Under the pieces are notes generated by a model that was not told where the DNA came from, did no database searches, and worked only from the letters and a program-made list of their open reading frames with translations. The position numbers and the translations under genes were made by a program. Of a stretch of 44,054 bases of DNA, positions 13,837 to 42,966 are shown in pieces; the first letter of the stretch is position 1; every line of letters begins with the position of its first letter. The stretch is from Candidatus Micrarchaeia archaeon (GTDB lineage Archaea > Micrarchaeota > Micrarchaeia > Anstonellales > Bilamarchaeaceae): assembly GCA_046538155.1 (NCBI GenBank), contig JBKHJL010000003.1, positions 1-44,054 on the forward strand. Direction: 5' to 3'.

Positions 13837-13908
13837 GCCTCAGTAGCTCAGGGGGAGAGCACTCGGCTGAAGACCGAGGTGTCGGTGGTTCAAATCCGCC
13901 CTGAGGCA
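13837..13908 (+). tRNA. tRNA-Phe(GAA), intron-less, CCA not encoded
   Basis: Acceptor stem GCCTCAG/CTGAGGC, anticodon arm CTCGG-CTGAAGA-CCGAG and T-loop GTTCAAATC; followed by a T-tract. Confidence 0.95.
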
Positions 13909-26362: not shown

Positions 26363-26366
26363 GGTT

Positions 26367-26612: not shown

Positions 26613-26688
26613 TGAATAAACCCGAGTAGATAAAGAGGATAATATTAATAAACCTTTAGCGGATGTTTTTCCAGGTTGCTGAATAGAG

Positions 26689-27477
26689 GTGCAGAGATTG
26701 GAAATAAAGATAAATCTGGAAAAAAGAGCCCAGGAAAATGCTGCGGAATACTACCAGGAAGCCAAAAAAGCCAGGAAGAAAAAGGAGGGAGTACTGAATG
26801 CAATAAAGAAAACCAGGAAAAAACTCAGAGAAGTAAAGGAAAGGGGTGTGGGGGGAGAGGAAAAGCAGGTACGTGTGCTGAGGGAAAAAAAATGGTATGA
26901 AAAATTCGGATGGAGTTTCACAAATTCTGGGAAACTGATTCTGTTTGGGAGGAACGCAAAACAGAATGATGCTCTTGTATCATCCCACCTGGAAAAAGGA
27001 GACCTTTTTCTCCATGCGGATATAAAGGGGGGCTCGGCAACAATACTCAAGGGGGGTGAAACATCAGAGGGAGAAGAACTGGAGGAAGCCACATCAATTG
27101 CGGCGAGCTTTTCAAAAGCATGGACAAAAGGTTTCAGCCAGGTGGATGTCTATGCAGTTGAGGCTGGGCAGGTAAGCAAGCATGCACACGGAGGGGCAAT
27201 AGAGTCAGGAGGATTTGCGCTTGAAGGGGAAAGAAGATGGTACAGAAACACACCACTTAAGCTCAGGGCAGGAATTGACGGGGAGGGGAGAGCGGCAGTA
27301 GGGGCACCGGGAGCCGCGTGGATAAAAAAGGGAGTGGAGATTGTTCCGGGAAGGCAGGGGAAGGGGAAGACTGCGAAAATGCTGGGAAAGCTTTTCCAGC
27401 TGGACGAGAATGAGTTTGTGCGGATTCTCCCTTCGGGAACTTTCAGGGTGTTGGGAGTTGGGGAGAAAAGATTGTAA
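26689..27477 (+). CDS. NFACT RNA-binding domain (DUF814/Rqc2-like) protein, short form
   Basis: ENAAEYYQEAKK coiled coil, WYEKFGW, GRNAKQND, LHADIKGGS and GGFALEGERRW. Confidence 0.85.
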   Translation: MQRLEIKINLEKRAQENAAEYYQEAKKARKKKEGVLNAIKKTRKKLREVKERGVGGEEKQVRVLREKKWYEKFGWSFTNSGKLILFGRNAKQNDALVSSHLEKGDLFLHADIKGGSATILKGGETSEGEELEEATSIAASFSKAWTKGFSQVDVYAVEAGQVSKHAHGGAIESGGFALEGERRWYRNTPLKLRAGIDGEGRAAVGAPGAAWIKKGVEIVPGRQGKGKTAKMLGKLFQLDENEFVRILPSGTFRVLGVGEKRL

Positions 27478-27488
27478 CCATGGTTACA
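27473..27488. promoter_or_regulatory. Palindrome TGTAACCATGGTTACA, copy 1 (upstream of purL)
   Basis: Perfect palindrome, extending to 18 bp (27472-27489). It contains the TAA stop of the NFACT gene; TTATAAA follows at 27509. Confidence 0.8.
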
Positions 27489-27550
27489 AAAAAGCCCTGC
27501 CCCTAATATTATAAATTTGTCAGCAGAAATGCGGGTATTGGTGGGAATGT

Positions 27551-30466
27551 ATGCGGCGAATTGAAGTAAAACCAAGGGGCAGTCTCAGGGACCCTGCCTC
27601 TGCCACGCTGAAAAAAGATATTGGAGCAATGACCGGAAAGGACATTGCTGACCTCATGATAACTAAGTCGTATACCATCGATGCTCAGCTGTCTGATGAA
27701 GAAATGGAAAGGCTGGGTAAAGAGCTTTTCGCTGACACCATTGCTGAGGAATATACCTACAGAGAGCCGGCATACCTCCACACCTGGAGAATAGAAGTCG
27801 GGCTTCTCCCTGGGATGACTGACAATGTGGGCAGGACTGCGAGCACTGCTGTTCAGGATGTGCTTGGAAAACGGCCGGATGTCTATTTTTCAAAAGTATA
27901 TTATGTAGACGGGGAATTTGAAGACGAAACAGTACTTGATGAAATTGCGGAGAAGCTCCTTGCAAATAAAATGATAGAGAGATGGAGGGTCTTCTCTCCT
28001 GAACAAACGGAATTCAGCCCCTTCCCTGCGAAAGTTGAGCTGGAGCATACCCCCAAAGTAGAAAAAATAAACATGGATGTCAGCGCAGGGGAGCTGGAGG
28101 AAATGAGCAGGAAAAGGCTGCTTGCCCTTTCCCCGGAAGAGATGGAAGGGATAAAGGAGTATTACAAAAGAAAGGAGATAATAGAAGAAAGGGAAAATGT
28201 GGGGCTGGACAGCCGTGCAACAGATGTTGAGCTTGAGGCCCTTGCCCAGTCCTGGAGCGAGCACTGCAAGCACAAGATATTCAACTCAGAAATAGAATAT
28301 TATGAGAATGGGGAAAAGGTTGAAGAAATAAACTCCATTTTCAGCACCTACATAAAAGGAGCAACGGAAAGGGCGATGAAACCATATGTGGTTTCCGTTT
28401 TCAAGGACAATGGAGGAATAATAAAATTCAACCTTGAGCATGATGTTGCAGTAAAGGTGGAGACACACAATGCCCCTTCAGCACTGGACCCCTACGGGGG
28501 CGCAATAACCGGCATACTTGGGGTAAACCGTGATGTTCTTGGCACAGGGATGGGGGCAAAGCCTGTTGCAAACATGGACATGCTCTGTTTTGGATACCTT
28601 GATGAAAAAGAAGTTCCGGATGGGGCTATGCACCCAAAGCGCATAGCAAAAGGAGTAGTAAAGGGAATAGAAGGGGGCGGAAACCCTGTAGGGATACCTA
28701 CAGTAAACGGCTCCATAACATTTGAAAAATGCTATGCCGCACGGCCCCTTGTATATGCAGGCACAGTGGGAATAATGCCCAACCAGGTCAACGGAAAGCC
28801 TTCATCAGAAAAAGAGGTTGAGCCGGGAAGCCTGGCGGTCATGGTAGGCGGTAGAATAGGAAAAGACGGGATACACGGGGCAACATTTTCATCCCAACAA
28901 CTTACTACAGAAGTGAGCTCAAGCGTTGTCCAGATAGGCGATGCGATAACCCAGAAAAAAGTAATAGACCTTGTGCTGGAAGCACGGGACAGGGGGCTGT
29001 TTGATGCAATAACTGACAATGGGGCAGGGGGGCTGTCATCCAGCATAGGGGAGATGGCCCAGTTTTCCGGGGGATGTGAAATTTACCTGGACAAATGCCC
29101 CCTGAAATACAAAGGACTTGACCCCTGGGAAATACTGCTTTCAGAATCACAGGAAAGAATGACACTTGCGATTCCCAGGGAAAAATGGAAGGAGCTGCAG
29201 AAGCTTGCGGAAAAGCACGATGTGGAAGCAACAGTTGTGGGTACATTTACGGACAGCGGATACTTCCACATCATGTATAATGAAGAAACAGTGGGATACC
29301 TGAGCATGGAATTCCTGCATGAAGGAATGGGAAAACTAAAGCTTAAGGCCAGCTGGGAAGAAAAGCTGCAGCCTGAGCCAAACCTTACAGAAACAGACCC
29401 GAATGAAATACTTCTGCGGCTTCTTGCTGCCCCGAACATCGCTTCAAAGGAGTGGGTGATAAGACAGTATGACCATGAGGTGCAGGGAGGAAGTGTAATA
29501 AAACCGGTCATGTGCGGAAACGGGACCTCGGACGGAGGGGTGATAAGGCCGCTTCTGGACTGCCAGGAAGGCCTGGTTATAAGCCATGGAATCTGCCCCA
29601 GGCAGGTTGAGGACTCTTACCACATGGCCCAGCTTGCGGTAGATGAAGCAGTGAGAAATGCTGTTGCTTCCGGAGCAATGTTCGGCTACCTCGCGGGGCT
29701 GGACAACTTCTCCTGGCCTGACCCGGTAAAATCCGAAAAGAACCCTGATGGAGATTACAAACTTGCCCAGCTGGTGCGCTGTGCAAAAGGCCTGCATGAT
29801 GCAGCAGTTGCTTACAGGATTCCTTTAATTTCCGGAAAAGACAGCATGAAAAACGATTATTATTCCGGAGGAGAGAAATATTCCATAAACCCCACCCTGC
29901 TGGTAACCATAGTGGGCAAAATACAGGATATTGAAGAGTCGGTTACCTGCAATTTCAAGAACCCGGGTGATTCCATATACCTCCTTGGAAAAACCAGGGG
30001 TGCGCTCGGGGGCAGTGAATACTACAAGGCATACGGAGGAGTTGGAAACGGGATGCCAAAAGTGGACCTGGAAGCTAACTCTTCACTTTACAATGCAGTT
30101 TCAAAGGCAGCGGCCGATGGGCTTCTCAGCTCTGCCCATGATGTTTCTGATGGGGGGATCGCTGTGGCCCTGGCAGAATGCACAATGGGGGGATTGCGGG
30201 GGGCAGATTTTGAAATCAGAGAAGCAGAAAGCGAAACAGAAGACGAAAGGGCGTTTCTGTTTTCAGAGGACCCGGGGCGTTTCATTGTAAGCGTCTCCTC
30301 GGAAAATGAAAACCGATTCAGGCAGATATTCTCCGGGCTTCCCGCTGCAAAAGTGGGCAGGGTTCGGGGGGACAAGAGAATGGTTATACGGAAGGATGGA
30401 AAGATGATTGTGAACCAGGATGTCATGGAAATGAAAGCGCTTTGGAGGAGGGCATTGAAATGGTAG
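27551..30466 (+). CDS. purL: FGAM synthase PurL with N-terminal PurS-like modules
   Basis: QSWSEHCKHKIF, KVETHNAPS, GRIGKDGIHGA, DNGAGG, LSESQERM, QYDHEV, SGKDS and HDVSDGG. Confidence 0.95.
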   Translation: MRRIEVKPRGSLRDPASATLKKDIGAMTGKDIADLMITKSYTIDAQLSDEEMERLGKELFADTIAEEYTYREPAYLHTWRIEVGLLPGMTDNVGRTASTAVQDVLGKRPDVYFSKVYYVDGEFEDETVLDEIAEKLLANKMIERWRVFSPEQTEFSPFPAKVELEHTPKVEKINMDVSAGELEEMSRKRLLALSPEEMEGIKEYYKRKEIIEERENVGLDSRATDVELEALAQSWSEHCKHKIFNSEIEYYENGEKVEEINSIFSTYIKGATERAMKPYVVSVFKDNGGIIKFNLEHDVAVKVETHNAPSALDPYGGAITGILGVNRDVLGTGMGAKPVANMDMLCFGYLDEKEVPDGAMHPKRIAKGVVKGIEGGGNPVGIPTVNGSITFEKCYAARPLVYAGTVGIMPNQVNGKPSSEKEVEPGSLAVMVGGRIGKDGIHGATFSSQQLTTEVSSSVVQIGDAITQKKVIDLVLEARDRGLFDAITDNGAGGLSSSIGEMAQFSGGCEIYLDKCPLKYKGLDPWEILLSESQERMTLAIPREKWKELQKLAEKHDVEATVVGTFTDSGYFHIMYNEETVGYLSMEFLHEGMGKLKLKASWEEKLQPEPNLTETDPNEILLRLLAAPNIASKEWVIRQYDHEVQGGSVIKPVMCGNGTSDGGVIRPLLDCQEGLVISHGICPRQVEDSYHMAQLAVDEAVRNAVASGAMFGYLAGLDNFSWPDPVKSEKNPDGDYKLAQLVRCAKGLHDAAVAYRIPLISGKDSMKNDYYSGGEKYSINPTLLVTIVGKIQDIEESVTCNFKNPGDSIYLLGKTRGALGGSEYYKAYGGVGNGMPKVDLEANSSLYNAVSKAAADGLLSSAHDVSDGGIAVALAECTMGGLRGADFEIREAESETEDERAFLFSEDPGRFIVSVSSENENRFRQIFSGLPAAKVGRVRGDKRMVIRKDGKMIVNQDVMEMKALWRRALKW

Positions 30467-31239
30467 GCAAGACAAATGCGCTTGTGCTGAATGGGTATGG
30501 GATAAACTGCCCGGTGGAAACCACTTATGCAGTAAAGGAAGCTGGGGGAAACGCGGAGATAATGCACGTAAGCAGGGTCCTGGAAAGCCCTTCCATTCTT
30601 GAAAAATACAATTTTCTGATTATACCTGGGGGATTTTCTTTCGGGGACGATATTGGCTCGGGAAAAGTGCTTGCAAACAGGCTCAGGTACAGGGCAGGAA
30701 AAGAGTTGCAGGAATTCATAAACAGCGGAAAGCTTGTGCTCGGGATCTGCAACGGATTCCAGGTACTTGTGAAGATGGGGCTGCTTCCGGAACCAGATTT
30801 CAGGCAGAGAGTAACCATAACCTACAATGAATCAGGGAAATTTGAAGACCGCTGGGTAGCGCTGAAAATAAACGAGCGCTCCCCATGTATATTCACGAGG
30901 GAACTCGGAGAAATAGAACTCCCGGTACGGCACGGGGAAGGAAGATTCATACCAGAAACAGGAGAAATACTGGATGGGATTATGAAAGACAACCTGAATG
31001 TTATGCAATATGCCGGACCGGACGGGGGGCAGGGAAAATACCCCTGGAACCCCAATGGCTCTGTAAAAGGCATTGCCGGAATCTGCGACAAAAGCGGGCA
31101 GACACTGGGGATGATGCCCCACCCCGAAGCCTACAACCACCGCACAAACCACCCCTGCTGGGCAGGAAGAACGGGCTCCACCGGAAGGGGGCTGTCGCTA
31201 TTCCGCAATGCTGTTTCATATCTTGAGCAGGAGTGGTGA
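30460..31239 (+). CDS. purQ: FGAM synthase glutaminase subunit
   Basis: GYGINC, PGGFSFGD, GICNGFQ, HGEG, NPNGS and GMMPHPE. Confidence 0.95.
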   Translation: MVGKTNALVLNGYGINCPVETTYAVKEAGGNAEIMHVSRVLESPSILEKYNFLIIPGGFSFGDDIGSGKVLANRLRYRAGKELQEFINSGKLVLGICNGFQVLVKMGLLPEPDFRQRVTITYNESGKFEDRWVALKINERSPCIFTRELGEIELPVRHGEGRFIPETGEILDGIMKDNLNVMQYAGPDGGQGKYPWNPNGSVKGIAGICDKSGQTLGMMPHPEAYNHRTNHPCWAGRTGSTGRGLSLFRNAVSYLEQEW

Positions 31240-31242
31240 GCA

Positions 31243-31728
31243 ATGGGAAGGAGGAACCTGGAATCAAGGGCAACCGGGGAAAAGAACTCTCTGAGGCACC
31301 TCTGGGAAAGCAGGGACCCTCTCCGGGTTGTTTTTAATTTTCTTGTGATTTACACTGCAAAATATGTTCCATTCCTGGAATTGAAAAACGACCTGCTCAG
31401 GCTGACAGGCATGAGGATAGGGGAAAACGTTTCAATCGGGCTGGCGGCAATGTTTGACATCTTTTACCCTGAGCTTATAGAAATAGGAGAAAATTCAGTG
31501 GTCGGATACAATGTCACAATACTTGCACACGAATACCTGATAAAGGAAATGCGTGTGGGGAAAGTAAAAATCGGTAAAAACGTAATGCTTGGGGCAAATT
31601 CCACTGTCCTTGCAGGGGTGAGCATAGGGGATGGTGCCACTGTTTCCGCAGCAACCCTTGTAGACAGAACAGTGCCAAAAAAAAACTTTGCAAAAGGCAA
31701 TCCAATGAAGGTTGTGAAGAAAAAATGA
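31243..31728 (+). CDS. Hexapeptide-repeat (LbH) acyltransferase, YvoF-like
   Basis: IGENVSIG, IGENSVVGYNVTILAHE, IGKNVMLGANSTVLAGVSIG and GNP. Confidence 0.85.
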   Translation: MGRRNLESRATGEKNSLRHLWESRDPLRVVFNFLVIYTAKYVPFLELKNDLLRLTGMRIGENVSIGLAAMFDIFYPELIEIGENSVVGYNVTILAHEYLIKEMRVGKVKIGKNVMLGANSTVLAGVSIGDGATVSAATLVDRTVPKKNFAKGNPMKVVKKK

Positions 31729-32315
31729 ACATCTGGAGATTCCTGTTTTACCTGCTCTGTGGCCTCTCTTTCTTCTTTGGATTTCTTACATACTATTACC
31801 AAATTCCGGAATTTCCGCCATGGCTCTGGGTTTTTATTCCGGACTGTCCGCTGTATGTAGGGCTTCTCCTGCTGGTGGTTATATTCGGAATACAAAACCG
31901 GCTTTGCAGATTTATTGCGGGCGCAGGACTAGTGAAATACGGGCTCTGGACACTGATGATTTTCGGGCTTTTTCCGGAAAGGTATTTTTCCCCGCTTTGC
32001 CTCAACACAACCAGCATACTGATTGTGGGGCACCTGCTGATGATTATGGCTGCCTGGGTAATCTTGCCGAAAAAACTGGGGAATGGATATTTGATGCTGG
32101 TCCTGGGGTGGTTCCTCCTTAATGACATTATAGATTACTGGGGGGGAACAAAGCCCCTCTTTCCGGGAGGGAAGGATGAGATTGTTATGGCGGCTTCGAT
32201 AGGTTTAAGTTTTGTTTCTGTGTTTGTGCCTTACCTGTCCAGGGAAATCGGGCAGAAGCCCTTCTTCCGGGCAATGCGTTCTGCATTGGGTGTTAAAGAT
32301 GAAAATCAGGTTTGA
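31725..32315 (+). CDS. DUF1405 (YpjA-like) membrane protein
   Basis: FIPDCPL, VKYGLW, H-x-x-M and NDIIDY motifs. Confidence 0.8.
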   Translation: MNIWRFLFYLLCGLSFFFGFLTYYYQIPEFPPWLWVFIPDCPLYVGLLLLVVIFGIQNRLCRFIAGAGLVKYGLWTLMIFGLFPERYFSPLCLNTTSILIVGHLLMIMAAWVILPKKLGNGYLMLVLGWFLLNDIIDYWGGTKPLFPGGKDEIVMAASIGLSFVSVFVPYLSREIGQKPFFRAMRSALGVKDENQV

Positions 32316-33765
32316 AAAAAAAGAAGTTGAAGAAATTGAAACAGAACTGCTTGTTGTGCCCTGCATAAAAGGGAGAAGGCCCGCCTGGTCTTCTGAAATC
32401 CTCAAAAAAAGCGGTGTGGAGGACAATTTCGGAGGTGAAAAAGAAAAATCCCTTTTTGTGCCAGTCCCGGACAGAGGATACCGGCGGCTGCTTTTCATTG
32501 GAATAGGAAAGGAAGCAAAGGCAAAAATAGAAAACTTCAGAGAGGCCGGGGGAAAGGCATATTCACTGGTGTCCGGAAAAAAAATAAAAAAATGCGGAGT
32601 CTGGGTAAGCGGAAAAATGGAGCTTGACCGGGGGGATGCCCTGCAGGCATTTGCAGAAGGATTTGCCCTGAAGAGCCAGCGGACAGATGTTTACAAAACA
32701 GAGAAGAAAGAGGAAAAGAAGAAAGACGTGGAAGAACTTGTTATTTTTTCTGAAGAGGACTACTCAAGGCGGGCAAGAGAAGCAGAAATACTCTCAACTG
32801 CACAAAACTATGCCCGGAGGCTGGACATGGAGCCCTCAAATGTAATGAGCCCCCAGAGAATAGCAGATGAGGCGTTGATGCTGGCAAAAAAATACGGGAT
32901 GGACTGCCGGGTTTACAGCAGGGGAGAGCTGGAAAAAAAAGGGATGGGGGGAATACTTGCAGTGGGAAGGGGAAGCGCAAAGCCCCCAACCTTTGTGAGA
33001 ATAGTATACAACCAGGGAAAAAACCTGCCCCACATTGCACTTGTGGGAAAAGCAATCACTTTTGACAGTGGAGGGATTTCCATAAAGCCAGGAAAGGGAA
33101 TGGCAAGCATGAAATATGACAAGAGCGGGGCGCTTGTTCTCCTGGGAGTGATGAAGGCACTTGCTGAACTGAAGGTGCCGGTAAAGGCAACCCTCATCTT
33201 CGGGGCCGCCGAGAATATGCCTGATGGGAATTCCGTGAACCCTGGGGACATAATAAAATCTTACAACGGAAAAACAATAGAGATAATTAACACCGATGCA
33301 GAAGGAAGAGTCTGTCTTGCAGACTCTGTTGCATATGCTGCAGAAATGAAGCCTGCCCTGATTCTAGATATGGCCACGCTTACCGGAGCAGCAAATGTGA
33401 TACTGGGCCGCCATGGAATATGCATGATGGGAACTGAGGGGAAGGCAATGGAGCTGCTTGAAGAGGCAGGGAAAGAAACCTACGAAAGGGTGTGGCCCCT
33501 GCCTGTATGGGAGGAATATTCAGAAATGGTGAAGAGCGATATTGCGGATGTGAAAAACATAGGGAGCGAACAGGGAGAGGCGGGAACCATAACCGCAGGG
33601 ATTTTCATAAAAGAGTTCGTGGGCAAAACTCCCTGGATACACCTTGACATCGCAAGTGTTGACCTTATTGAACACCCTGGCGCTTATCTCCCCAAGGGCC
33701 CGAGCGCAAGAGGAGTGCGGCTTGTTACCTCATTTATCAGAAAATGGACACAGAAAAAGCAATGA
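32299..33765 (+). CDS. pepA: Leucyl aminopeptidase (M17)
   Basis: VGKAITFDSGG, MKYDKSG, NTDAEGR, ATLTGA and WIHLDIA. Start taken at MKIRFE (32299). Confidence 0.95.
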   Translation: MKIRFEKKEVEEIETELLVVPCIKGRRPAWSSEILKKSGVEDNFGGEKEKSLFVPVPDRGYRRLLFIGIGKEAKAKIENFREAGGKAYSLVSGKKIKKCGVWVSGKMELDRGDALQAFAEGFALKSQRTDVYKTEKKEEKKKDVEELVIFSEEDYSRRAREAEILSTAQNYARRLDMEPSNVMSPQRIADEALMLAKKYGMDCRVYSRGELEKKGMGGILAVGRGSAKPPTFVRIVYNQGKNLPHIALVGKAITFDSGGISIKPGKGMASMKYDKSGALVLLGVMKALAELKVPVKATLIFGAAENMPDGNSVNPGDIIKSYNGKTIEIINTDAEGRVCLADSVAYAAEMKPALILDMATLTGAANVILGRHGICMMGTEGKAMELLEEAGKETYERVWPLPVWEEYSEMVKSDIADVKNIGSEQGEAGTITAGIFIKEFVGKTPWIHLDIASVDLIEHPGAYLPKGPSARGVRLVTSFIRKWTQKKQ

Positions 33766-33798
33766 TAACTAATTAAATAATTTGTGAGATATAAAACT

Positions 33799-36700
33799 AT
33801 GAATACTAAAATTCTGCTTGTTTTATTAGTGGGCTTGGTTTGTGTGGGGTTTTCTGCTTCTGAGGAATACCCCCGGCCCTGGGAAAACGACACCTGGCTG
33901 CAGGAAAACCCATATGCAGCAAGCTTTTTTGAAATGCCTGCCCTTGCTTCTTCGGGCTCAATGCTTGAGGAAGAAGACAGGGAAGCGCTTGAGGATCTTC
34001 TTCAGACAACTGTTCCTGATTTCCAGAACAGCCTGGAAGAGCTGCAGCTGGAAAAGGTTAAATCTGGGATCTCCCTGCGTAGGGAAAATGCATCATACAT
34101 TAGTGCTGCCGCAGAAAAAAAAGAAGATGCGGCAGAAATAAAGCTTGATGTTGAGGACCTAGTTCCGGGAAAGTGTAGCTGGGACATATTTACGTATCCC
34201 TGGGACTGGACAGACTGTGCAGAATATTCCCTCCTCGGGCTGGAGAAGTATGGAGAAAAGGTAAATGGGAAGAGGGCAGAGTTTGAGGTGTGGAGAGAAA
34301 AACTTGTATACGGCGGGGTGTGCAATGACAATTATACCGGAGGTGGAAGTGAATACTGTGGAATGCCTCTGGAGGATGTTGAGTGTGAAATTTCAGAGAT
34401 ATGGAATGCAGTACCCGGGTTTTCCTGGTATTACGGGTGCGTGGAAGAGCACTGGAGCACGATTGACGCACTTGATGAGAAGATAGACAGCATAAACCAG
34501 ACCTACCGGGAACTGGGTGATTCCTGCGAAGAGGGGAAAGCACTTGCAGAAGAGAAAAAGGGGCTTGTGGAAGATGTTGTTTCTGAAATGGAGCAGGAAG
34601 AGATAAGCAGGATATACCGGAGCAGCTATGGGGAGAGCAACAGCCGGGCCCAGGGGATTAGGGGAGAATATGAAGAACTCATAGGAATAAAGGAACTTGC
34701 GGACGAAGCCTTCCAAAGGGCAGAAAATGCTGAAGAGGGGGACAGGGGATGGATAAATGACTGTATAATGGGGAGCGGAACCGCGGTTTCAGGTTATACT
34801 GTGATTGCCCAGAGCGGGATAATGGATGAGGCTGAAGAAGTTGTCTGGGAGTATGGGGAAGAAGCGGAGGAACTGCTGGAAGAGGCAAAAGCAATGGAAA
34901 ATAAAATGGGGGAAAGAGGAAAGGCCTGGCTGGAGGATGCAAAGGGCTACTGCCGCATCGGAAGTTCGGGGAGCTTGGGGGAGCGCTTTGAAGATTATGG
35001 AAAGTGTAAGAAATATGCAAACATGGCCCTGAATTCTGCAGAGCAGGAGGAGGGGGCAGAAGAAGCAATAATAACCGAGGAGCTGGAGTGGCTGGAGGAA
35101 TTCATAGAAAAGGCGAAGGCAGATGGAATAGACACCCATACTGAAGAAGTGCAATATGCGCTGCTGGAGCAGACAATGCCCTCCAACTATCAGGAAATAA
35201 TTGAAAACATAGAAGAAGGAATTCTGGAAAAGGCGGAAAACAGGTATGGGGACCTGCCTGAAAGAAGGGCATATATCCTTGACCAGATAAGCATGGACGG
35301 CTCTAAGCCGAGTTTCCTTGAAACCTGGCTAAAGGGAGAGGAGTGCTATGATGGGGATGAACTTGATTACCGCTGCGCACTGGGGACGCTTTCCGAAATA
35401 GAGGAATCATATGATGAGATAGAAGCAGAATTTATGGCAAACAGGAATTCGCTTGTGCAGAACTCTATTATTGTTGATGCTTATGAGCAGATTGGCATAC
35501 CTGCACTGGACGGCAACACGAGCCAGTATCTCTATGTGGACATAAAGAACCCCACTAAATATTCTGGAGAAGGAGTAACTGTAGAAGCACATACAGATGT
35601 GGAATACCGGAAGATTGACCTGGTCCGGGGAAAAGAAGAAGTAAGGTTGGTAACCCCGAAAAGAGGCAGGATTGAAATAGAGCTTACAGAGATAAACGCA
35701 AGTGAGACGATATCCCTTATCTTCAAAAAAGAAGGAATTGTCTGCAGGACAAAAAAGCATGAAGAAGAAGCGGAGGGAGACAGTGAAGGCGGGGCAGACG
35801 TGAAGCATGAGATAAAGATTTCCTGTGAAGAGGATGTCGGAGGGTTGATAATCGGGGATTATCCAGGTGTGGAAAGCGTAACCATTGATGGGATAACCGT
35901 CCCATACACAGGAGATGGGATAGCCCGGCCTCTTGCAAAAGGAACACATACCCTGGAACTGTACACCCATGATTATGATGCATATGACGTTGAAAGGGGG
36001 GTCTCCTTCATAACAACCTTCGGGCAGACCACCAATGTGGAGCTATTCTTCACCTTCCATCCAAAGAGAGACCTGGAATATATTGCATATTCAAGTACAG
36101 AAGAGGGAAAGGGAATGGAGGAAATTGATATTTTTGGTTACACTGGGGAGAGGATCACAGAAAAAAACATAATCGGGGAAAGCACTGTGTTTTTCAAGGT
36201 GCACGACCTTGAGGCAGGAAAGCCAACGAAAGTCAGGGTAAGCTACGAGATGAACAACCTTGAGGAGTATGTTAATGAGCAGGTACTGCTTTACCAGGGG
36301 ATGAACCTGAGCAGCGGGGAAACTGCAATCCTGGAGGAAACACTGACATACCTCCAGCAGGGTGATGAGGAAAGCGCTTATGAAAAAATAGAAGACCTCA
36401 GGGATTTGGTTGAGAACAGGGAGAAAAAAGAAGAAAACGTGCTGAAAAAACATGAAAAACTGAAGGAAGAGATGGAAGAGAAAATAAGCCAGTTAGAGAA
36501 TGCTCTGCAGGTTGCAGAAAACCTCGGGGTAAACAATACTTATACCCGGGAAATGGAGGCACGGGTGACTGAGCTGCGCAGTGCTATTGAAGAAGACGTT
36601 CCGGAAGGGGCCCTGATAAGCCCGCTTGAAAGTATAGACAAGGGATGGGAAAAAAAGAAGATAACCAAGATATCCAAAGCACTGCTGAACAGGGAAAAAG

Positions 36701-37470
36701 AGATAAAAGAAAGATGGGCGGACACAGGTTATTACGGAGAGAATACTGAGGAGGCTATCACTGAAGTAGAAGAGAAAAACAGCCAGTTCTCGGGAAGCCT
36801 CAATCTTGACGATGCAATGGAGGCATTTGATGCGGCGCTCAGGGCAGAAGCGGTGCTGGATGCGGCAGAAGAAAGCAAATCTGAGGAAGATATGGTAATG
36901 GAGGCGGCCCTTGAGGAAATTGTAGCTGAAGCATATGATGTGCTTGAGGAGTATACACGGGAATACGAAGAAGCCGATGAAACCCATCTTGAAGGCAACT
37001 TTCTGCTTAAGCCATATGAAGTGAGCAGATACCTGAAAAAAGCAGATGAAACAGAAAACTGTGGGGAAACAATAGGGGAAATTGAAAAAATGACAGGAAA
37101 GATGGAGGGAACCCTTGAACTCCTTAAAAACGAGGAGGAGAGGCTCGGGGAAAATCTGGAGGCGCTCTACGGGAAGCAGAAAGAAAACATGGCAGACAAG
37201 GACCGGAACTTTGTGGAAAGCGCAATGGCAACCGCAGAAAACTATGCAGGGAACGGAGAATATGTGCGGGCAATAAAAAGCCTGGAAGCAGGCCTGGACA
37301 AGATGAAGAACTTTGAGCGGAAGCAGGACGGCCTGCTCATACTCGCGATTACCGGTCTTTTGGTACTGGGGATAGTCGGGCTCTATCTGATGAGGGAAAG
37401 AATCCCGCCCAATATCCTGGGGCAGGGTAAAAAAGAGAAAACATACAGAAAGCTTAAGAGGGAGCAATGA
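33799..37470 (+). CDS. Large acidic cell-surface protein (signal peptide, Cys-containing helical region, beta-rich middle, long coiled coil, C-terminal TM plus basic tail)
   Basis: N-terminus MNTKILLVLLVGLVCVGFSA; C-terminal LLILAITGLLVLGIVGLYLM followed by KKEKTYRKLKRE. Confidence 0.8.
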   Translation: MNTKILLVLLVGLVCVGFSASEEYPRPWENDTWLQENPYAASFFEMPALASSGSMLEEEDREALEDLLQTTVPDFQNSLEELQLEKVKSGISLRRENASYISAAAEKKEDAAEIKLDVEDLVPGKCSWDIFTYPWDWTDCAEYSLLGLEKYGEKVNGKRAEFEVWREKLVYGGVCNDNYTGGGSEYCGMPLEDVECEISEIWNAVPGFSWYYGCVEEHWSTIDALDEKIDSINQTYRELGDSCEEGKALAEEKKGLVEDVVSEMEQEEISRIYRSSYGESNSRAQGIRGEYEELIGIKELADEAFQRAENAEEGDRGWINDCIMGSGTAVSGYTVIAQSGIMDEAEEVVWEYGEEAEELLEEAKAMENKMGERGKAWLEDAKGYCRIGSSGSLGERFEDYGKCKKYANMALNSAEQEEGAEEAIITEELEWLEEFIEKAKADGIDTHTEEVQYALLEQTMPSNYQEIIENIEEGILEKAENRYGDLPERRAYILDQISMDGSKPSFLETWLKGEECYDGDELDYRCALGTLSEIEESYDEIEAEFMANRNSLVQNSIIVDAYEQIGIPALDGNTSQYLYVDIKNPTKYSGEGVTVEAHTDVEYRKIDLVRGKEEVRLVTPKRGRIEIELTEINASETISLIFKKEGIVCRTKKHEEEAEGDSEGGADVKHEIKISCEEDVGGLIIGDYPGVESVTIDGITVPYTGDGIARPLAKGTHTLELYTHDYDAYDVERGVSFITTFGQTTNVELFFTFHPKRDLEYIAYSSTEEGKGMEEIDIFGYTGERITEKNIIGESTVFFKVHDLEAGKPTKVRVSYEMNNLEEYVNEQVLLYQGMNLSSGETAILEETLTYLQQGDEESAYEKIEDLRDLVENREKKEENVLKKHEKLKEEMEEKISQLENALQVAENLGVNNTYTREMEARVTELRSAIEEDVPEGALISPLESIDKGWEKKKITKISKALLNREKEIKERWADTGYYGENTEEAITEVEEKNSQFSGSLNLDDAMEAFDAALRAEAVLDAAEESKSEEDMVMEAALEEIVAEAYDVLEEYTREYEEADETHLEGNFLLKPYEVSRYLKKADETENCGETIGEIEKMTGKMEGTLELLKNEEERLGENLEALYGKQKENMADKDRNFVESAMATAENYAGNGEYVRAIKSLEAGLDKMKNFERKQDGLLILAITGLLVLGIVGLYLMRERIPPNILGQGKKEKTYRKLKREQ

Positions 37471-37482
37471 GGGTGTGGTAGG

Positions 37483-38094
37483 ATGCAGGGATGGCAAACT
37501 CTTCTGGCAATTTTCGTAATTGCCTTCATAGTTCAGCTGGGAGTACCTGGGTTTACAGAAGGATTGTATTTTGACCCATCAAACCTGATGCCATGGATGT
37601 TCATTACCAGCTGTTTCCTGCACGGGGGGCTGATGCATCTTTTCTTCAATTCATTTTCCCTGCTTATTTTCGGGCCCTACCTGGAAAGGGAAATCGGCAC
37701 AAAAAATTTCCTTTTGCTCTTCCTGGCTGCAGGAATAGCAGGAAACATTACCTATTACATTACAATCATAATGGAAATCATTCCTTTGGTACCTGCACTC
37801 GGGGCAAGTGGGGGAATCTTTGGGATACTGGGTGCACTTGCAATGCTCAGGCCGGACATGCGGGTTTTTGTGTTCTTTATTCCCATGCCCATACAAGCGG
37901 CTGCGGCACTCTGGTTCGTGCTTGAGCTCATGGGTTCATTTAACCCGGGCTCAGGAATAGCAAATGCTGCACACCTTGGAGGTCTCATACTGGGGCTGGC
38001 TTACGGAACGTATTATGAAAGGAAACGGAGGGAGGAATTTGTGTTCCAGCACAGTGGAGATGCCAGCGGGGGCTGGGACGGGGACTATATCTAA
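37483..38094 (+). CDS. Rhomboid family intramembrane serine protease
   Basis: FLHGGLMHLFFN, GASG (catalytic Ser) and AHLGG (catalytic His). Confidence 0.93.
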   Translation: MQGWQTLLAIFVIAFIVQLGVPGFTEGLYFDPSNLMPWMFITSCFLHGGLMHLFFNSFSLLIFGPYLEREIGTKNFLLLFLAAGIAGNITYYITIIMEIIPLVPALGASGGIFGILGALAMLRPDMRVFVFFIPMPIQAAAALWFVLELMGSFNPGSGIANAAHLGGLILGLAYGTYYERKRREEFVFQHSGDASGGWDGDYI

Positions 38095-39578
38095 AGGAAT
38101 TTGTTTAGAGTATTCTGCCCGGCTTTCTTCCCTTCTGGCTTTGTGGGCATTTCGGACGTTGTGTTCTGCATTCGGAATTTGTCCCTGAAAGACAGGAGAA
38201 CCTCTTTCATTTTCTTCTCTCTTTTTCTTGAAGCCCAATAATAATACTCATCTCTTGTTTTGCGGGTCATGAGAACATAAACAGCGCCTTCCTTCATTCT
38301 TCCTGCCCTCCCTCTCCGCTGGATAGTCCGTATCTCGCTGGGTATGGGTTCATAGAAAATAACCGCATCCACTTCAGGGATGTCCAGACCCTCCTCTCCT
38401 ATAGAACTTGCAACAAGGATGTCAAACTCTCCCTTGCGGAAAGAATCCATGGTTTCCTCCTGCATCTTCCTGTTGAAATTCTTTCTTTTGCCCATAAAAG
38501 ATTTTGCACGAAACCCGCGCCGGTCCATCTCCGCGCTTATTTCTTCTATCTGGTCCCTGTACTGGACAAATATTATGACTTTCTTTTCCCTGAGCTTAGC
38601 CATTATTGAAAACAGCTTTTCCATTTTTGGGTGTTCCCCGGCCTTCTCAAGCAGGGAAACTACTTTTGATATTTCTGTGTTTTTGGAAACGGCAGCTGCT
38701 GATTTTGAATCAGATGTACGCAGCTTTTCCAGGTATCTGAACACCGGAACCTTTCCCTGGGTTTCAAGGAGCTCCTGGAGGTGGAGAATGTGGAGCAGGC
38801 AGCTGTAGAGATAAATTACACGGTATTTCATGGGGTGTTTTATTCTCATTATGCGGGGACGCAACTCAAGAAAGGCCTTTTTGGAAGAAAGGCAGGGGCG
38901 TATTCCCATGTTTTTCAGGAGCTTTGCCTGTTTTGTTGCGTAGGAAGCCAGTATTTCCTTTGCCTCAAGATATGAGCTGGTGAGAGTTACCGGCACCCAT
39001 TCCTGCTTCATCCTCTTTATATATGGAAGAACATCGGGGTCGGAATTTGTCCTTACCTCTACATTCGTTATCCTGAGACTGTCAAGGACTTTCTTTATCT
39101 TGGCGCGGTCCCCCCCAGGAGAAGCAGTTAGGCCTATTATTTTTGCTGTTTCGGGCAGACCTTCAGCTATTTTTACATAGGCGTAATCCCCCACTGCTCG
39201 ATGGGCCTCGTCAAATACTGCAAGAGATATTTTGTCAGAAGGAAAAATCCCTTTTTTCATATCATTCCGTATTGTCTGGGGTGTTGAAGAAACAACCCTG
39301 TTCTTGTAAAGCACGGTGCGTTTTTTTGGGGTGTTTTCACCAGTAACCAGTGCAGAACCGCCTTCCACTTCACCCAAAACACTCTTTATTGTGTTGCTGT
39401 GCTGGCGGGCAAGGGGCTTTGTGGGGGTAAGGAAAATGCATTTTCCTGGTGTGTTTTCCATCATTGCCAGGGCTATCAGTGTTTTGCCCAGGCCAGTAGG
39501 AAGCACAACAAGGGTGTTGCCATTTTCCTTTATAGATTGTATTATCTTTTTCTGGTATTCCCTGGGCTGAAGCTTCAT
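38091..39578 (-). CDS. hef: Hef/FANCM-like SF2 helicase without the ERCC4 nuclease domain, ending in a PIP box
   Basis: PREYQ, LPTGLGKT, DEAHRAVG, LTASPG, EEGLDIP, QRRGRAGR and C-terminal QNTLNKFL. Confidence 0.9.
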   Translation of the reverse strand: MKLQPREYQKKIIQSIKENGNTLVVLPTGLGKTLIALAMMENTPGKCIFLTPTKPLARQHSNTIKSVLGEVEGGSALVTGENTPKKRTVLYKNRVVSSTPQTIRNDMKKGIFPSDKISLAVFDEAHRAVGDYAYVKIAEGLPETAKIIGLTASPGGDRAKIKKVLDSLRITNVEVRTNSDPDVLPYIKRMKQEWVPVTLTSSYLEAKEILASYATKQAKLLKNMGIRPCLSSKKAFLELRPRIMRIKHPMKYRVIYLYSCLLHILHLQELLETQGKVPVFRYLEKLRTSDSKSAAAVSKNTEISKVVSLLEKAGEHPKMEKLFSIMAKLREKKVIIFVQYRDQIEEISAEMDRRGFRAKSFMGKRKNFNRKMQEETMDSFRKGEFDILVASSIGEEGLDIPEVDAVIFYEPIPSEIRTIQRRGRAGRMKEGAVYVLMTRKTRDEYYYWASRKREKKMKEVLLSFRDKFRMQNTTSEMPTKPEGKKAGQNTLNKFL

Positions 39579-39675
39579 TAAACTAATTATTCCTCTTCAG
39601 GTTTAAAAACAATGAGGGGGTGTGTTTCCACTATTCCCGGTTTGATTTTCCAGTAAAGTAATAATTAAAAATATA

Positions 39676-39691
39676 TGTAACCATGGTTACA
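39676..39691. promoter_or_regulatory. Palindrome TGTAACCATGGTTACA, copy 2 (between the TATA-like element and the ATG of the Cas2-like gene)
   Basis: Perfect 20-bp palindrome TATGTAACCATGGTTACATA at 39674-39693, with the ATG at 39696. Confidence 0.8.
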
Positions 39692-39695
39692 TACA

Positions 39696-39929
39696 ATGTT
39701 AGTATACCTATACGATATCAAGTCTTCTGTTGAAGAATATAACAGAATAAAACGAAATTTTTACTATCATCTTAACAAAAATGGCTATAATAAGTATTTC
39801 TGGAAAACGAAGTCTGTGTTGGTCGTACCTGAGGAGATGGAGCAGGTTATTGACGGATTTTTTCATTCTTTCTCTGGCTCAGTCGTAGTTTATAAAATAA
39901 TAACTGATTCAATTGAAGAGCTGGAATAG
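39696..39929 (+). CDS. Stand-alone Cas2/VapD-like small protein
   Basis: 77 aa. It starts LVYLYDI, continues with helix RIKRNFYYHL, then WKTKSVLVV, matching the Cas2 pattern 'YDI...R...L...QxSV'. No cas1 or array in the window. Confidence 0.65.
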   Translation: MLVYLYDIKSSVEEYNRIKRNFYYHLNKNGYNKYFWKTKSVLVVPEEMEQVIDGFFHSFSGSVVVYKIITDSIEELE

Positions 39930-39950
39930 TGGAAATGAGGGGTCTCCTGC

Positions 39951-41513
39951 CTATTCCACTAATTCTTTTACATCCAGTTCACAAAGTGCAACAGGGTATT
40001 CCAGACCATATTTTTTTAGTACTTCGGGATGCACTGAACCAATAACCCCTGCCTTTTCTCCATCCAGGAAAACTTCAGCACACCTTCCTTCTATAAAACA
40101 AGAGTCTTTGCCCTGCTTTAGCTTAATCCCTTTACCTACCCATTTTGACAGTGTCTGGAGGAAGGCCTGGAGAGTCGTAAGTGAGGCGTTGTCCCCCATA
40201 ATTCCAAAACAAAGGCTTTCTTTTTCTTCCCCGTTGTATATTTTTCCACACTCGTAGATTTTTTGCGGCAGCCCCATCATCTTATTGGTTGAAAAACATT
40301 CCATTATACCTGAAACAAGAGTTGTTCTCAAATGGGTAAATTCCTCGGATGCAGAGTTTTCTATTACAAGTGCCCCCTTTTCCTTCCCCACCTTCCCGAG
40401 CTTTTCAGGATTTGTGAGAAAATAATTTTTTACTTCCAGGAACTCCATGCCCGTAAGCGCACTGTGCAGAGGCTCCAGCCTTCTGTTTTCTTTGCCCGTA
40501 GTTGTAAGCTGGGGGAGGGTTGGCTCCAGCCTCTCATATCCATATCCTATTGCAATATCTTCTATTATATCAGTAAAGGAGAGTATGTCTGCCCTGTATG
40601 GGGGCACAATTGCCTGCTCCCCTTCAACAGGAATCCCCATTTTCTGCAGGCAGGTTTTTCCTTCCTCCAAATCCAGTTTAATCCCAAGCACCCTTCCTGC
40701 CTCCTCCATATCCACTTCTATTTTTTCTTCGGTAAAATCCGGGTGGGTTTCCCCATTAATTTTAACCTGGAATAGCTCTCCTCCCCTGTCCGCGAGCGCA
40801 GTAGCTATTATGTTTACGGTTTTCCTCACAGTTTCCCTTGAGGTTCCTGTTGCTTCTACAAGCAGGTTCTTTGTTTTTTCCGTTACCCGCGTCCGTTCAC
40901 TGTTTATTACAGGAGGGAAGGACACCACGCCTTTTTCATCTTTAATTAACACTGCTTTTCCTTCCGGTACAAGGTGCGCATACGCCCTTCCCTTTGGGTG
41001 TTTTTCTAGCACCTCCCGGATGTCCATCTCCTCCTCCATTTCCAGGGGGACCAGCTTTTCCCCCCGTGCAACAGTATACCTCATTTTCCCGGATATATTG
41101 TCCAGGTCGTGTATTCCCACCGCAACCTTCTTTCTTTTCCGCCCAATTGTCTGGTGCAGTTTTTCCTGCATCTGCATCAGGTCTTCCAGCAGCTCATCAT
41201 CAATATTCAGCCCTTTAACTACAGCTGCGGAAACCTCAGGCCTTACTTTCCGTGTTTCATCTGAAACTTCCATTGAGTAATCTGATTTTTCAGCCACATA
41301 TTCAGGAATCTTTTTATCATAATATGCAGTGACTGCACGGACAATTCCCTCTACGCAAAAGAGGTCCGGCCGGTTTGGGGTTATCTCAACAACAACTTCT
41401 CCCTCCTCTTCTTCCACAGGCATACCTATATTGGTAAGGCACTCAATGATTTCGGATTCGGTGCGCCCGGTCATCTTTTCCAGTTTTTTGAAATCAGCAT
41501 TTATATTTGCCAT
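39951..41513 (-). CDS. pheT: Phenylalanine-tRNA ligase beta subunit (archaeal type)
   Basis: EITPNRPDL, QEKLHQTIGRKRKK, SFPPVINS, PPYRADI...DIIEDIAIGYGY and GSVHPEVL. Start taken at MANINA (41513). Confidence 0.94.
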   Translation of the reverse strand: MANINADFKKLEKMTGRTESEIIECLTNIGMPVEEEEGEVVVEITPNRPDLFCVEGIVRAVTAYYDKKIPEYVAEKSDYSMEVSDETRKVRPEVSAAVVKGLNIDDELLEDLMQMQEKLHQTIGRKRKKVAVGIHDLDNISGKMRYTVARGEKLVPLEMEEEMDIREVLEKHPKGRAYAHLVPEGKAVLIKDEKGVVSFPPVINSERTRVTEKTKNLLVEATGTSRETVRKTVNIIATALADRGGELFQVKINGETHPDFTEEKIEVDMEEAGRVLGIKLDLEEGKTCLQKMGIPVEGEQAIVPPYRADILSFTDIIEDIAIGYGYERLEPTLPQLTTTGKENRRLEPLHSALTGMEFLEVKNYFLTNPEKLGKVGKEKGALVIENSASEEFTHLRTTLVSGIMECFSTNKMMGLPQKIYECGKIYNGEEKESLCFGIMGDNASLTTLQAFLQTLSKWVGKGIKLKQGKDSCFIEGRCAEVFLDGEKAGVIGSVHPEVLKKYGLEYPVALCELDVKELVE

Positions 41514-42885
41514 ATGGGTCCCTCTTCTCCTTTGCTTTCTTTTCAGCCGCAGGAGTAACATACTCTCCGGTCACACAGCCAAAACAACCGTTTTCCCCAA
41601 CTGCTTTTTTCAGCCCGTCCAGGCTTATGTAATGGAGGCTGTCCACTCCAAAGAAATCTCTTATTTCCTTCACGCTTTTGTTATTTGCTATCAACTCATC
41701 ATAAGTGGGCATATTTATTCCGTAAAAACAGGGGGAGATTACCGGAGGACAGGTTATGCGCAGGTGAATCTCCTTCGGCCCGCAGTTCTTAAGCACGCGG
41801 ACTATTTCTTTCATCGTTGTGCCACGCACGATACTGTCATCAAACAAAACAATCTTTTTTCCCTGGATTATCTGCCTGATAGGGTTTACCTTCATTCTCA
41901 CTGCCTTTTTTCTGCTCTCCTGGTCAGGCATTATGAAGGTCCTGCCAATGTATCTGTTTTTTATTATTCCTTCCGTGTATTCTACTCCGGTTTCCTTTGC
42001 AAACCCAAGGGCGGCGCTTCTTGAAGTGTCAGGAACAGGGATTACAAGGTCTGCATCAACCGGGGCTTCCTCTGCAAGCTGCTTTCCGAGCTCTTTCCTT
42101 ACCTGTTCCACAAGTTTTCCGTTTATTATGGAATCAGGCCGGGAAAAATAGACATATTCAAACATACAGTGCCTGGCTCCTTTGTTCAGAAGAGTCTTTT
42201 TTTTCATGTTTCCGTTTTCATCAACTATTGCCAGTTCCCCTGGCTGTATTGAACCGGAGTAAGGGACCAGGTTCATGTCCAGGCCTGTGGATTCAGAACA
42301 GAATATTATATTGTTTTCATCTTCGCCGTAGGTAAGGGGCCGTATCCCATGGGGGTCCCTGAAGATAAAGACTTTCCTGTCGTATATTCCGACAACCGAG
42401 TAAGCACCATCAAGCTTTTCCATTGCATGGAGCACCGCCCCTTCCAGGGTTGCTCCTTCCCGCAGTTTGTCTGCCATGAGATAGAGGATGGCTTCTGAGT
42501 CAACAGTTCCCTCAAAAACATAGTTTTTTTCCTCCAGCCCCTTTCTTATTTCAGAATAGTTTGTGATGTGCCCGTTGTGGGCAACGGAAATACCGCCTGA
42601 AATGGATGGCTGGATATCCCTGAGCGTTGCTGTTTCAGTTGTAGGGTAGCGTGTGTGGCCTATTCCGGCCCAGTGAGGCTGGACAAGGTCTTTTTCCTGG
42701 ATGACTTCTGCAACCAGCCCCACCCCTTTTTTCTTATAGAATGAGCCATCATACAATACCATGCCTGCGGCATCCTGCCCCCTGTGCTGGACACCAACCA
42801 TTGCCCGGTAAACAGCCGGTGCAACCCGGGATTTGTTTTTTGAGATGACCGCCACTATGCCGCACTCTTCCTTTACTTCATCCAT
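41494..42885 (-). CDS. purF: Amidophosphoribosyltransferase
   Basis: EECGI (Ntn Cys after a propeptide), QHRGQD, GHTRY, HNG, CMFEYVYFSRPDS, DDSIVRGTT, and Fe-S cysteines CFYG and CFGC. Confidence 0.96.
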   Translation of the reverse strand: MDEVKEECGIVAVISKNKSRVAPAVYRAMVGVQHRGQDAAGMVLYDGSFYKKKGVGLVAEVIQEKDLVQPHWAGIGHTRYPTTETATLRDIQPSISGGISVAHNGHITNYSEIRKGLEEKNYVFEGTVDSEAILYLMADKLREGATLEGAVLHAMEKLDGAYSVVGIYDRKVFIFRDPHGIRPLTYGEDENNIIFCSESTGLDMNLVPYSGSIQPGELAIVDENGNMKKKTLLNKGARHCMFEYVYFSRPDSIINGKLVEQVRKELGKQLAEEAPVDADLVIPVPDTSRSAALGFAKETGVEYTEGIIKNRYIGRTFIMPDQESRKKAVRMKVNPIRQIIQGKKIVLFDDSIVRGTTMKEIVRVLKNCGPKEIHLRITCPPVISPCFYGINMPTYDELIANNKSVKEIRDFFGVDSLHYISLDGLKKAVGENGCFGCVTGEYVTPAAEKKAKEKRDPYGKYKC

Positions 42886-42950
42886 TAATTCACCAGACAA
42901 GCAAGAATACTCTTCTTAGGGTATGGGAGTTTTATAAGCATTATAGGTCT

Positions 42951-42966
42951 TGTAACCATGGTTACA
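42951..42966. promoter_or_regulatory. Palindrome TGTAACCATGGTTACA, copy 3 (upstream of purF)
   Basis: Perfect 16-bp match. It contains the minus-strand TAA stop of the Nre gene; TTATAAA lies on the minus strand at 42937-42931. Confidence 0.8.

Follow-up and report, generated by a model that had tools for sequence, protein, structure and literature searches.

Several described systems build on short palindromes or on short sites repeated across a genome. In Escherichia coli, the regulator PurR binds as a dimer to a 16-bp palindromic operator, the PUR box, which is present at purine units and at the regulator's own gene. The parS site, likewise a palindrome of 16 bp, occurs in a few near-perfect copies in each genome. 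The DNA-binding domain of papillomavirus E2 is a small ferredoxin-like protein that dimerizes via its sheet and reads ACCG-N4-CGGT, with one helix per half-site. Integron cassettes and the Xer-dependent dif modules of Acinetobacter plasmids are short modules, often toxin-antitoxin pairs, that are bounded by one short site; the core sites of tyrosine recombinases are much longer than 16 bp. To our knowledge, gene control in DPANN archaea is almost undescribed, and accounts of how archaea control purine synthesis are poor. We analyzed a 44,054-nucleotide stretch of DNA (the window) that is contig C27 of a 972-kb Micrarchaeota metagenome-assembled genome (G000; 53 contigs, 89% complete), and in particular a 16-bp palindrome, TGTAACCATGGTTACA, one copy of which directly precedes a gene for a 77-residue protein. 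The palindrome is probably the operator of a clade-specific dimeric DNA-binding protein, for which the 77-residue protein is the most likely candidate.

A scan of the window found three exact copies of TGTAACCATGGTTACA (Table 1) and no further matches with up to three mismatches. Chance would give 0.13 copies, and three or more were reached in none of 100 shuffles. The shared geometry of copies 1 and 3, which had been picked out in the original prediction, was borne out: copy 1 is 62 nt from the purS-purL start codon and copy 3 is 65 nt from that of purF, with a TTATAAA box between site and start in both cases. Copy 2 widens to a perfect 20-bp palindrome (39674-39693) and is located in the divergent region common to the 77-residue protein gene and a helicase gene.

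Scanned at 0-2 mismatches, G000 as a whole contains 16 exact copies, one copy with a single mismatch, and no copy of the full 16-mer with two; a reversed control pattern gave no matches. Allowing two mismatches in the arms alone returned 16 matches, all within open reading frames (ORFs), and control patterns returned 22, 15, and 10. As these near-matches occur at the frequency of the controls, the palindrome copies constitute a class apart, with a sharply two-peaked distribution. They are nearly all between genes: the centers of 14 of the 17 sites are outside ORFs, and the non-ORF share of the genome is 5.5% (binomial P for at least 13 of 17, 9e-14, based on crude ORF calls). By gene orientation, the sites divide into four between divergent, 11 between tandem, and two between convergent genes; ten sites overlap the stop codon of the upstream gene or are no more than 9 nt from it, as judged from gaps read by hand. 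Beyond one or two bases the flanks of the 17 copies have nothing in common, so that the copies are not a mobile repeat with a body, and an origin as a miniature inverted-repeat transposable element or as an insertion-sequence end was rejected.

Five purine units have an upstream copy (purSL-purQ, purF, purP [DUF1246/DUF1297], purN, and purE), out of eight such units found in G000. For five pur genes near sites the hypergeometric P is 5.6e-7, given 12 pur genes (an assumed figure), 1133 ORFs, and 19 site-proximal genes. The other 12 copies are not at purine genes. Besides the one at the 77-residue protein gene, there are upstream copies at the histidyl-tRNA synthetase gene, divergent from a small nucleotide-kinase-like gene; at a pair of ADP-forming acyl-CoA synthetase genes, divergent from a beta-CASP gene; at the gene for the primase large subunit (the single-mismatch copy); at a family-2 glycosyltransferase gene and a Fic gene; and at three toxin-antitoxin pairs (ParD-like/MazF, VapB/PIN, and an antitoxin with ParE). 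At the purine units and about ten others the site is upstream of a TATA-like box, at a distance of 0-54 nt. A neighbor of one site was considered as purB and rejected; the gene encodes argininosuccinate lyase (argH) and lies beside argG, so that its site is not a purine site. The window's purSL product (27551-30466) is a 971-residue protein in which two PurS stretches are fused to PurL, and purQ is the next gene.

The sites are conserved among relatives. All eight genomes of the genus hold 8-19 copies each; in the rest of the family and order, occurrence of the exact 16-mer is patchy (17 of 41 genomes). When 41 loci with 50 sites were compared among four sister species, copies were found at the same gene borders: those of purSL, purF, purP, purN, purE, the 77-residue protein gene, and the histidyl-tRNA synthetase/kinase pair, and further those of the glycosyltransferase, primase subunit, CoA-synthetase pair, argH, and methyltransferase genes. 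Purine sites are kept in G001, G002, G005, and G007, and the promoter sequence around the kept copies differs between species. In other genera the center of the palindrome is TATA, TATG, or CATA, versus CATG here, giving a consensus across genomes of TGTAAC-YATR-GTTACA. In these genera purSL is preceded by one copy in G019 and by two in G023, which also has a copy at purF; genus g17 keeps the site at purSL and purF, and genus g13 at purSL. In a genome from a different family (G032, family f9), a copy precedes purE by 38 nt. Copies in other genera also precede the genes for PCNA, DNA ligase, Nre, and threonyl-tRNA synthetase as well as glmS and carB, and others follow the ends of several genes. 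In G022 a variant, TGTGACTATAGTCACA, is perfect at eight sites and there is one hybrid, so that both arms have changed together genome-wide.

Two adjacencies were noted in this comparison. At C23 (L018) 5032-5047 a copy lies in, or at the start of, the frame of a 260-residue methyltransferase, where it codes V-T-M-V-T, an arrangement kept in G002; a second C23 copy follows the stop codon of the same gene. At C9 (L021) 3373-3969 is a gene for a 198-residue ACT plus DUF7523 protein whose end is always 3-4 nt before a palindrome, in G000, G001, G002, G005, and G023 alike; in G023 the next gene is convergent and is not purN. This protein may serve the system as a ligand-sensing partner.

The gene that follows copy 2 is a single-copy core gene of the clade, present in 37 of 41 relatives, and is adjoined by the helicase gene and the gene for the beta subunit of phenylalanyl-tRNA synthetase. 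We compared 32 orthologous loci, drawn from the 37 genomes with a match. Exact arms (TGTAAC-N4-GTTACA) occur 1-30 nt before the ATG in 22 of them and variant arms in five more, which makes 27 of 32 with a palindrome 1-33 nt before the ATG; the flanks of the palindrome diverge while the site itself stays. In two families beyond the order, all five genomes have a copy 0-17 nt before the gene, and the palindrome is kept ahead of the ATG in at least 14 families. In a phylum sample of 151 genomes, the palindrome was present in 38 and the protein family in 59, and both were confined to the same families; in families f13, f14, f16, f17, f20, and f22-24 neither was found in any of 89 genomes. The protein also occurs in 37 of the 38 palindrome genomes, the exception being G145. 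Conservation of the palindrome before the start codons of homologs, and its co-occurrence with their family, had both been named as checks in the original prediction, and both hold. A sole site at a gene's own promoter is the usual mark of self-regulation; among single-copy genomes, G029, G134, and G108 have their sole copy at the 77-residue protein gene, and G037 and G059 have it elsewhere.

Farther upstream of the same gene (window 39601-39635) a TTTAAAA box is followed, after 6-8 nt as read by eye, by GGGGGTGTGTTTCCACT. Throughout the order this element is conserved 50-70 nt ahead of the gene, and a second GGGGGTGTGTTTCCACT copy, at a similar distance from a box, is present near a tyrosine-recombinase gene in G000 (C44 ~2160-2200, minus strand). 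The box-GGGGGTGTGTTTCCACT element could be a second operator or else a plus-strand transcript start, with the palindrome in the 5' leader.

A profile search of 1.84 billion proteins with the family of the 77-residue protein returned only 78 clusters, all from its own family and all either small stand-alone proteins or likely wrong starts. Apparent fused forms (P0026, P0040, P0046, and others) were rejected as likely wrong starts or low-complexity extensions, as they have no Pfam domain. A search of PDB with the family profile gave no Cas2, only spurious matches to repeat proteins and an apolipoprotein, and the best named clusters in the ESM Atlas (0.81 and 0.79), both hypothetical proteins, provided no lead. 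The AlphaFold model (predicted local distance difference test score, pLDDT, 90.8) has the ferredoxin-like order beta-alpha-beta-beta-alpha-beta, with strand 1 at residues 2-8. Cas2 chains came first in a Foldseek search, with E values of 0.01-0.1 and template-modeling (TM) scores of 0.4-0.64, and there were no matches at E ≤0.001. The Foldseek-independent VIA-align gave an uncharacterized protein as the best match (Z 7.9), with Cas2 at Z 6.7 amid many ACT and PII folds. Given these weak scores, ‘Cas2-like’ denotes a likeness of fold only. The original description of the gene as an orphan Cas2 does not stand: there is no Cas2 sequence match, the fold likeness is weak, and the gene is a single-copy core gene of its clade; nor was Cas1 (PF01867) found in the 89%-complete G000.

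Ten residues are invariant among 34 sequences (Y4, D7, K19, R20, F22, Y23, Y24, S40, F55, and K67). K19, R20, F22, Y23, and Y24 form a conserved basic and aromatic set on helix 1; D7 is at the end of strand 1, which we take to be the position of the catalytic Asp of Cas2. Comparison by eye of helix-1 residues with arm variants revealed no clear covariation rule. The protein is predicted to form a homodimer (score 0.47 versus 0.00 for the best control; contact agreement between runs at least 81%, partner pLDDT at least 66). The mark that it passed was passed by 20 of 30 proteins solved as one-chain pairs and by one of 23 solved as single chains, counts that hold only roughly because an alignment of our own was used for the prediction. 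Likeness to solved Cas2 dimers may explain the pass. The predicted interface comprises residues 64-77, i.e., the C-terminal strand, plus residues 3, 5, and 7, and leaves helix 1 exposed.

The copies are also points at which relatives differ in gene content. At argH, G002 has both states: one contig (at L099) has argH, one palindrome, and then a gene for a 180-residue protein, and another (at L103; ~86% identical) has ParD-MazF between two palindromes, as does G000 on contig C9. The alignments of the occupied and unoccupied contigs overlap exactly at the palindrome. Similarly, a 743-bp VapBC segment lies between two copies before the glycosyltransferase gene of G000, where G001, G002, G005, and G007 have one copy. 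The ParD-MazF cassette of G005 (82% identity) is at a different copy, behind the ACT-domain gene, and purN of G005 is preceded by a decayed copy with four mismatches (read by eye). At a locus on C26, G000 has the order methyltransferase-palindrome-Fic-palindrome-ParE toxin-antitoxin pair, G005 has Fic only, and G002 has the ParE pair only. Paired copies bracket genes in two further genomes: an EamA gene in G023 and, in G043 from another order, AbiEii and AAA_14/DUF4143 genes.

Relatedly, the flanks of purSL and purF are swapped in G002, G005, and G007 by a 15.5-kb inversion. In BLAST alignments, window positions 42951-44040 are joined, inverted, to 27472-29967, and 38175-42970 are joined to inverted 24979-27263, so that both joints fall within the palindrome. 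The outgroup G023 has the G000 order, making the inversion the derived state. The cassette and inversion data are solid evidence that palindrome copies are seams of genome change.

Two cassette candidates were set aside: tRNA-linked integration at the C26 locus was rejected, as no tRNA was found there, and the 260-residue methyltransferase gene was rejected as mobile because it is colinear in G002, with its upstream copy in or at the start of the frame. A second repeat family borders the methyltransferase, Fic, and ParE cassettes, namely a 95-nt direct repeat with 98% identity at C26 (L019) 5781-5875 and 7707-7801 that can form a hairpin with a 15-bp stem; partial copies are found at C26 7806-7858, 8688-8787, and 8836-8898 and also on C16, C31, and C13. 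The VapBC (C20 9330-9380) and ParE (C26 7981-8004) cassettes have a common leader right after the palindrome, with 96% identity over 24 nt by BLAST and a likeness of ~50 nt by eye. This leader suggests a shared cassette promoter or origin.

Table 1. Features in the window that bear on the palindrome, with strand where one applies
Feature	Position	Strand	Remarks
Palindrome copy 1	27473..27488		On the TAA stop of the NFACT-R gene; 5' of the purS-purL promoter; left inversion joint
Palindrome copy 2	39676..39691		TATA-like stretch 39660-39675 on one side, ATG (39696) of the 77-residue protein gene on the other
Palindrome copy 3	42951..42966		On the stop of the Nre gene; 5' of the purF promoter; right inversion joint
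TTATAAA box, purSL promoter	27509..27515	+	20 nt after copy 1; box kept in five species
TTATAAA box, purF promoter	42931..42937	-	13 nt after copy 3
purS-purS-purL fusion (phosphoribosylformylglycinamidine, FGAM, synthase)	27551..30466	+	Pfam; then purQ at 30442-31239
purF (amidophosphoribosyltransferase)	41494..42885	-	Pfam; start taken as ATG 42885-42883
NFACT-R domain gene	26689..27477	+	TAA stop inside copy 1; flank swapped by inversion
Nre (archaeal DNA repair) gene	42962..44053	-	5' end beyond window; stop inside copy 3; other flank swapped by inversion
DEAD/ResIII helicase	38091..39578	-	Divergent from 77-residue protein gene; synteny kept across order
77-residue protein gene	39696..39929	+	Family without name; ferredoxin-like fold; predicted homodimer; candidate palindrome binder
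Inverted segment	27473..42966		Flipped relative to flanks in G002, G005, and G007

These recombination events are the basis of the strongest alternative, to which we give a minor but real chance: that the palindrome serves primarily as an attachment site for cassette integration or site-specific recombination, much as in integron cassettes or dif modules, and that its position at promoters is secondary. A recombinase would exchange DNA at the copies, possibly with the 77-residue protein as a targeting or accessory subunit, and insertions would be tolerated only between genes, or cassettes would gain expression there. The empty and occupied states seen twice (ParD-MazF at argH and the 743-bp VapBC segment), the presence of one ParD-MazF cassette at different copies in G005 and G000, the variable C26 array, and the paired copies around EamA, AbiEii, and AAA_14/DUF4143 genes all favor such a system, as does an inversion with both joints in copies. 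The identity of the copies and the concerted changes in their arms would suit a copying process, and the copies at convergent gene ends have no promoter to serve. There are, moreover, three tyrosine-recombinase (PF00589) loci in G000, on C44, on C8, and at C7:33459-34053. On the other hand, a PF00589 search found no recombinase beside any copy, the C7 locus being 20-30 kb from the C7 copies, and Cas1 was not found. Contigs of two DNA runs, compared with window positions 26000-44054, included no variant joints at the palindromes, those of the likely source run among them, a result of little weight as contigs drop rare variants. A 16-bp site with a symmetric center is also far shorter than, and unlike, the cores of tyrosine recombinases. 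An attachment site would also give no reason for the purine enrichment, and copies are kept at orthologous promoters across genera and families despite diverging flanks, which argues for selection on each copy.

Reading the palindrome as an operator accommodates this conservation. That positions are conserved at orthologous promoters, that some sites fall between divergent genes, and that purine genes are enriched together point to a DNA-level site under selection, as an operator is, and the site appears to behave as the target of a dimeric protein, as had been predicted. The 77-residue protein is the best candidate for the binder and for a self-repressor in view of the site's fixed place between the TATA-like box and the ATG of its gene, the taxonomic range that it has in common with the motif, and its predicted dimer. 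A dimer of this protein on copy 2, the best-conserved copy, would block recruitment of RNA polymerase, and its gene would thereby be under negative autoregulation. At purSL, purF, purP, purN, purE, and about ten further units, initiation would be activated or modulated in some other way by this protein, perhaps in response to a ligand. Because many identical copies (8-19 per genome) are scattered over each genome, they double as DNA exchange points: circular or excised cassettes (ParD-MazF, VapBC, and others) come in at a copy, which is thereby duplicated, and recombination between two copies has inverted the 15.5-kb segment. This seam role may be a by-product of scattered identical sites or their first purpose.

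Several observations weigh against an operator bound by the 77-residue protein. Perfect identity of 16 bases in 16 copies is odd for operators and better fits copying or recombination. The site-TATA distance at purSL varies in five species (~19-29 nt), and a classic activator would be expected to have a fixed spacing. Three purine genes, purC, purM, and purD, have no copy, the best match there having seven mismatches, and the two copies at convergent ends (the argH 3' end and between the elongation factor 2 and methyltransferase genes) have no promoter; the argH site is nevertheless kept in G002 and G005. Of the 11 copies in G043, none adjoins a gene of purine biosynthesis. The purine regulon originally suggested is thus supported by its five units with upstream sites and not as an account of all copies: with 12 of the 17 copies elsewhere and none in G043 at purine genes, the regulon would be wider than purines and would vary between lineages. 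Five of the 32 orthologues lack an upstream palindrome. The co-occurrence of motif and protein carries less weight because relatives are not independent samples, and it may be no more than the mark of a single clade. The second TATA-like box (39601-39609) could produce a transcript that carries the palindrome as RNA. As to the protein, Pfam (E ≤0.01) and NCBIfam searches gave no family and thus no known DNA-binding domain; it is not basic overall (~9 basic versus 11 acidic residues by sequence count); and its structural neighbors are generic ferredoxin-like, ACT, and Cas2 folds, many of which bind ligands or RNA.

Some of these points would fit as well if the palindrome is a true operator and a different transcription factor binds it, which we consider unlikely. 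The 77-residue protein gene would then be only the most conserved target, its product being, e.g., a small regulatory or nucleic-acid-handling member of the regulon. All of the evidence for an operator applies equally to this case, and the lack of a recognizable DNA-binding domain and the five site-less orthologues would be accounted for. However, the annotated neighbors of the 17 G000 sites include no transcription factor other than cassette antitoxins, the sole copy in several genomes is at the 77-residue protein gene, and the motif and this protein share their family range.

There is a slim chance that the 77-residue protein is a domesticated Cas2-type protein with two roles: reading the palindrome as a transcription factor, at its own gene and at nucleotide and replication genes, and marking or nicking the sites for site-duplicating insertion of cassettes. 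Such insertion would parallel the duplication of the CRISPR repeat when a spacer is added. If so, this clade would provide an extant connection of gene regulation with an adaptation-type integration module, one that works without Cas1.

It is very improbable that the palindrome acts as RNA, i.e., as a UGUAAC-CAUG-GUUACA hairpin at message ends that is bound or cut by the 77-residue protein. In that case the protein would be a Cas2/VapD-like RNA binder or RNase that tunes the stability or translation of messages, its own included. The ten sites at stop codons would fit, as would the resemblance of the fold to Cas2/VapD and to RNA-hairpin binders such as Csy4, the invariant D7 at the position of the Cas2 catalytic Asp, and a possible promoter at 39601-39609, whose transcript would have the hairpin 4 nt ahead of the start codon. 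However, neither message should include the four sites between divergent genes, at purine genes the site precedes the TATA-like box, the 6-bp stem is weak, and the recombination events act on DNA. Barely credible, finally, is a role in chromosome handling, whether as a centromere of the parS type, as an uptake signal, or as a protein roadblock terminating transcription at gene borders. The palindromic form, the length of 16 bp, and the number of copies (4-19 near-perfect ones per genome) resemble parS, and stop codons adjoin many copies, but a search of G000 (89% complete) gave no ParB_N (PF02195), G032 has its 12 copies on three contigs totaling ~760 kb, so that they are not clustered, copies are far too few for an uptake signal, the flanks of the 17 copies have no consistent T-run after the sites, and the fixed place before the 77-residue protein gene is left unexplained; of the dispersed element suggested originally, what survives is that copies are recombination points, and the parS option misfits.

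Rfam at gathering thresholds reported RNase P RNA plus one tRNA in the window and no others; these are an archaeal RNase P RNA at 3774-4029 and a tRNA gene at 13837-13908. As Rfam was silent at the sites, a known RNA family at the palindromes was rejected.

In the portions of the literature available to us, we found no paper with the motif, nor any on a Micrarchaeota or archaeal purine regulon of this kind. One 16-bp site and one 77-residue protein from a nameless family make up a testable pair, with a regulon that is defined in many genera. If the protein binds the site, it would represent a new class of sequence-specific DNA reader on a ferredoxin-like fold. That identical regulatory sites in a tiny genome would serve as seams, for the entry of toxin-antitoxin and defense cassettes and for chromosome rearrangement, is of general interest for genome evolution.

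Compared with parS/ParB, there is no ParB_N match and the copies are unclustered and tied to promoters and to one small gene. Like integron cassettes and dif modules, the cassettes here are bounded by the site, are at different copies in relatives, and have empty and occupied states; unlike them, they use a 16-bp site with a symmetric center that is spread chromosome-wide at conserved promoters rather than in an array or on a plasmid, with no adjacent PF00589 recombinase. The 77-residue protein resembles Cas2/VapD in its size, in the order of its strands and helices, in its invariant Asp ending strand 1, and in its predicted dimerization via the C-terminal strand, and Cas2 chains head its Foldseek list. 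It differs in that it matches no Cas2/VapD sequence profile (in Pfam, NCBIfam, PDB, or the 1.84 billion proteins), in that Foldseek E values are at least 0.01 and generic ACT/ferredoxin folds rank equally in the Foldseek-independent search, and, from Cas2, in that no Cas1 was found in G000 and its single-copy clade core gene has a fixed palindrome ahead of it. E2 is viral/eukaryotic, and its likeness carries no claim of relatedness; it demonstrates that such a fold can read a palindrome with four central bases. PurR belongs to the LacI-type helix-turn-helix proteins and has a corepressor domain, unlike the 77-residue single-domain ferredoxin-like candidate, and the sites here differ from PUR boxes in being at archaeal TATA promoters, in being all identical, and in being at purine genes in only five of 17 cases. 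As with PurR, several de novo purine units and the gene for the candidate regulator are preceded by a 16-bp palindrome.

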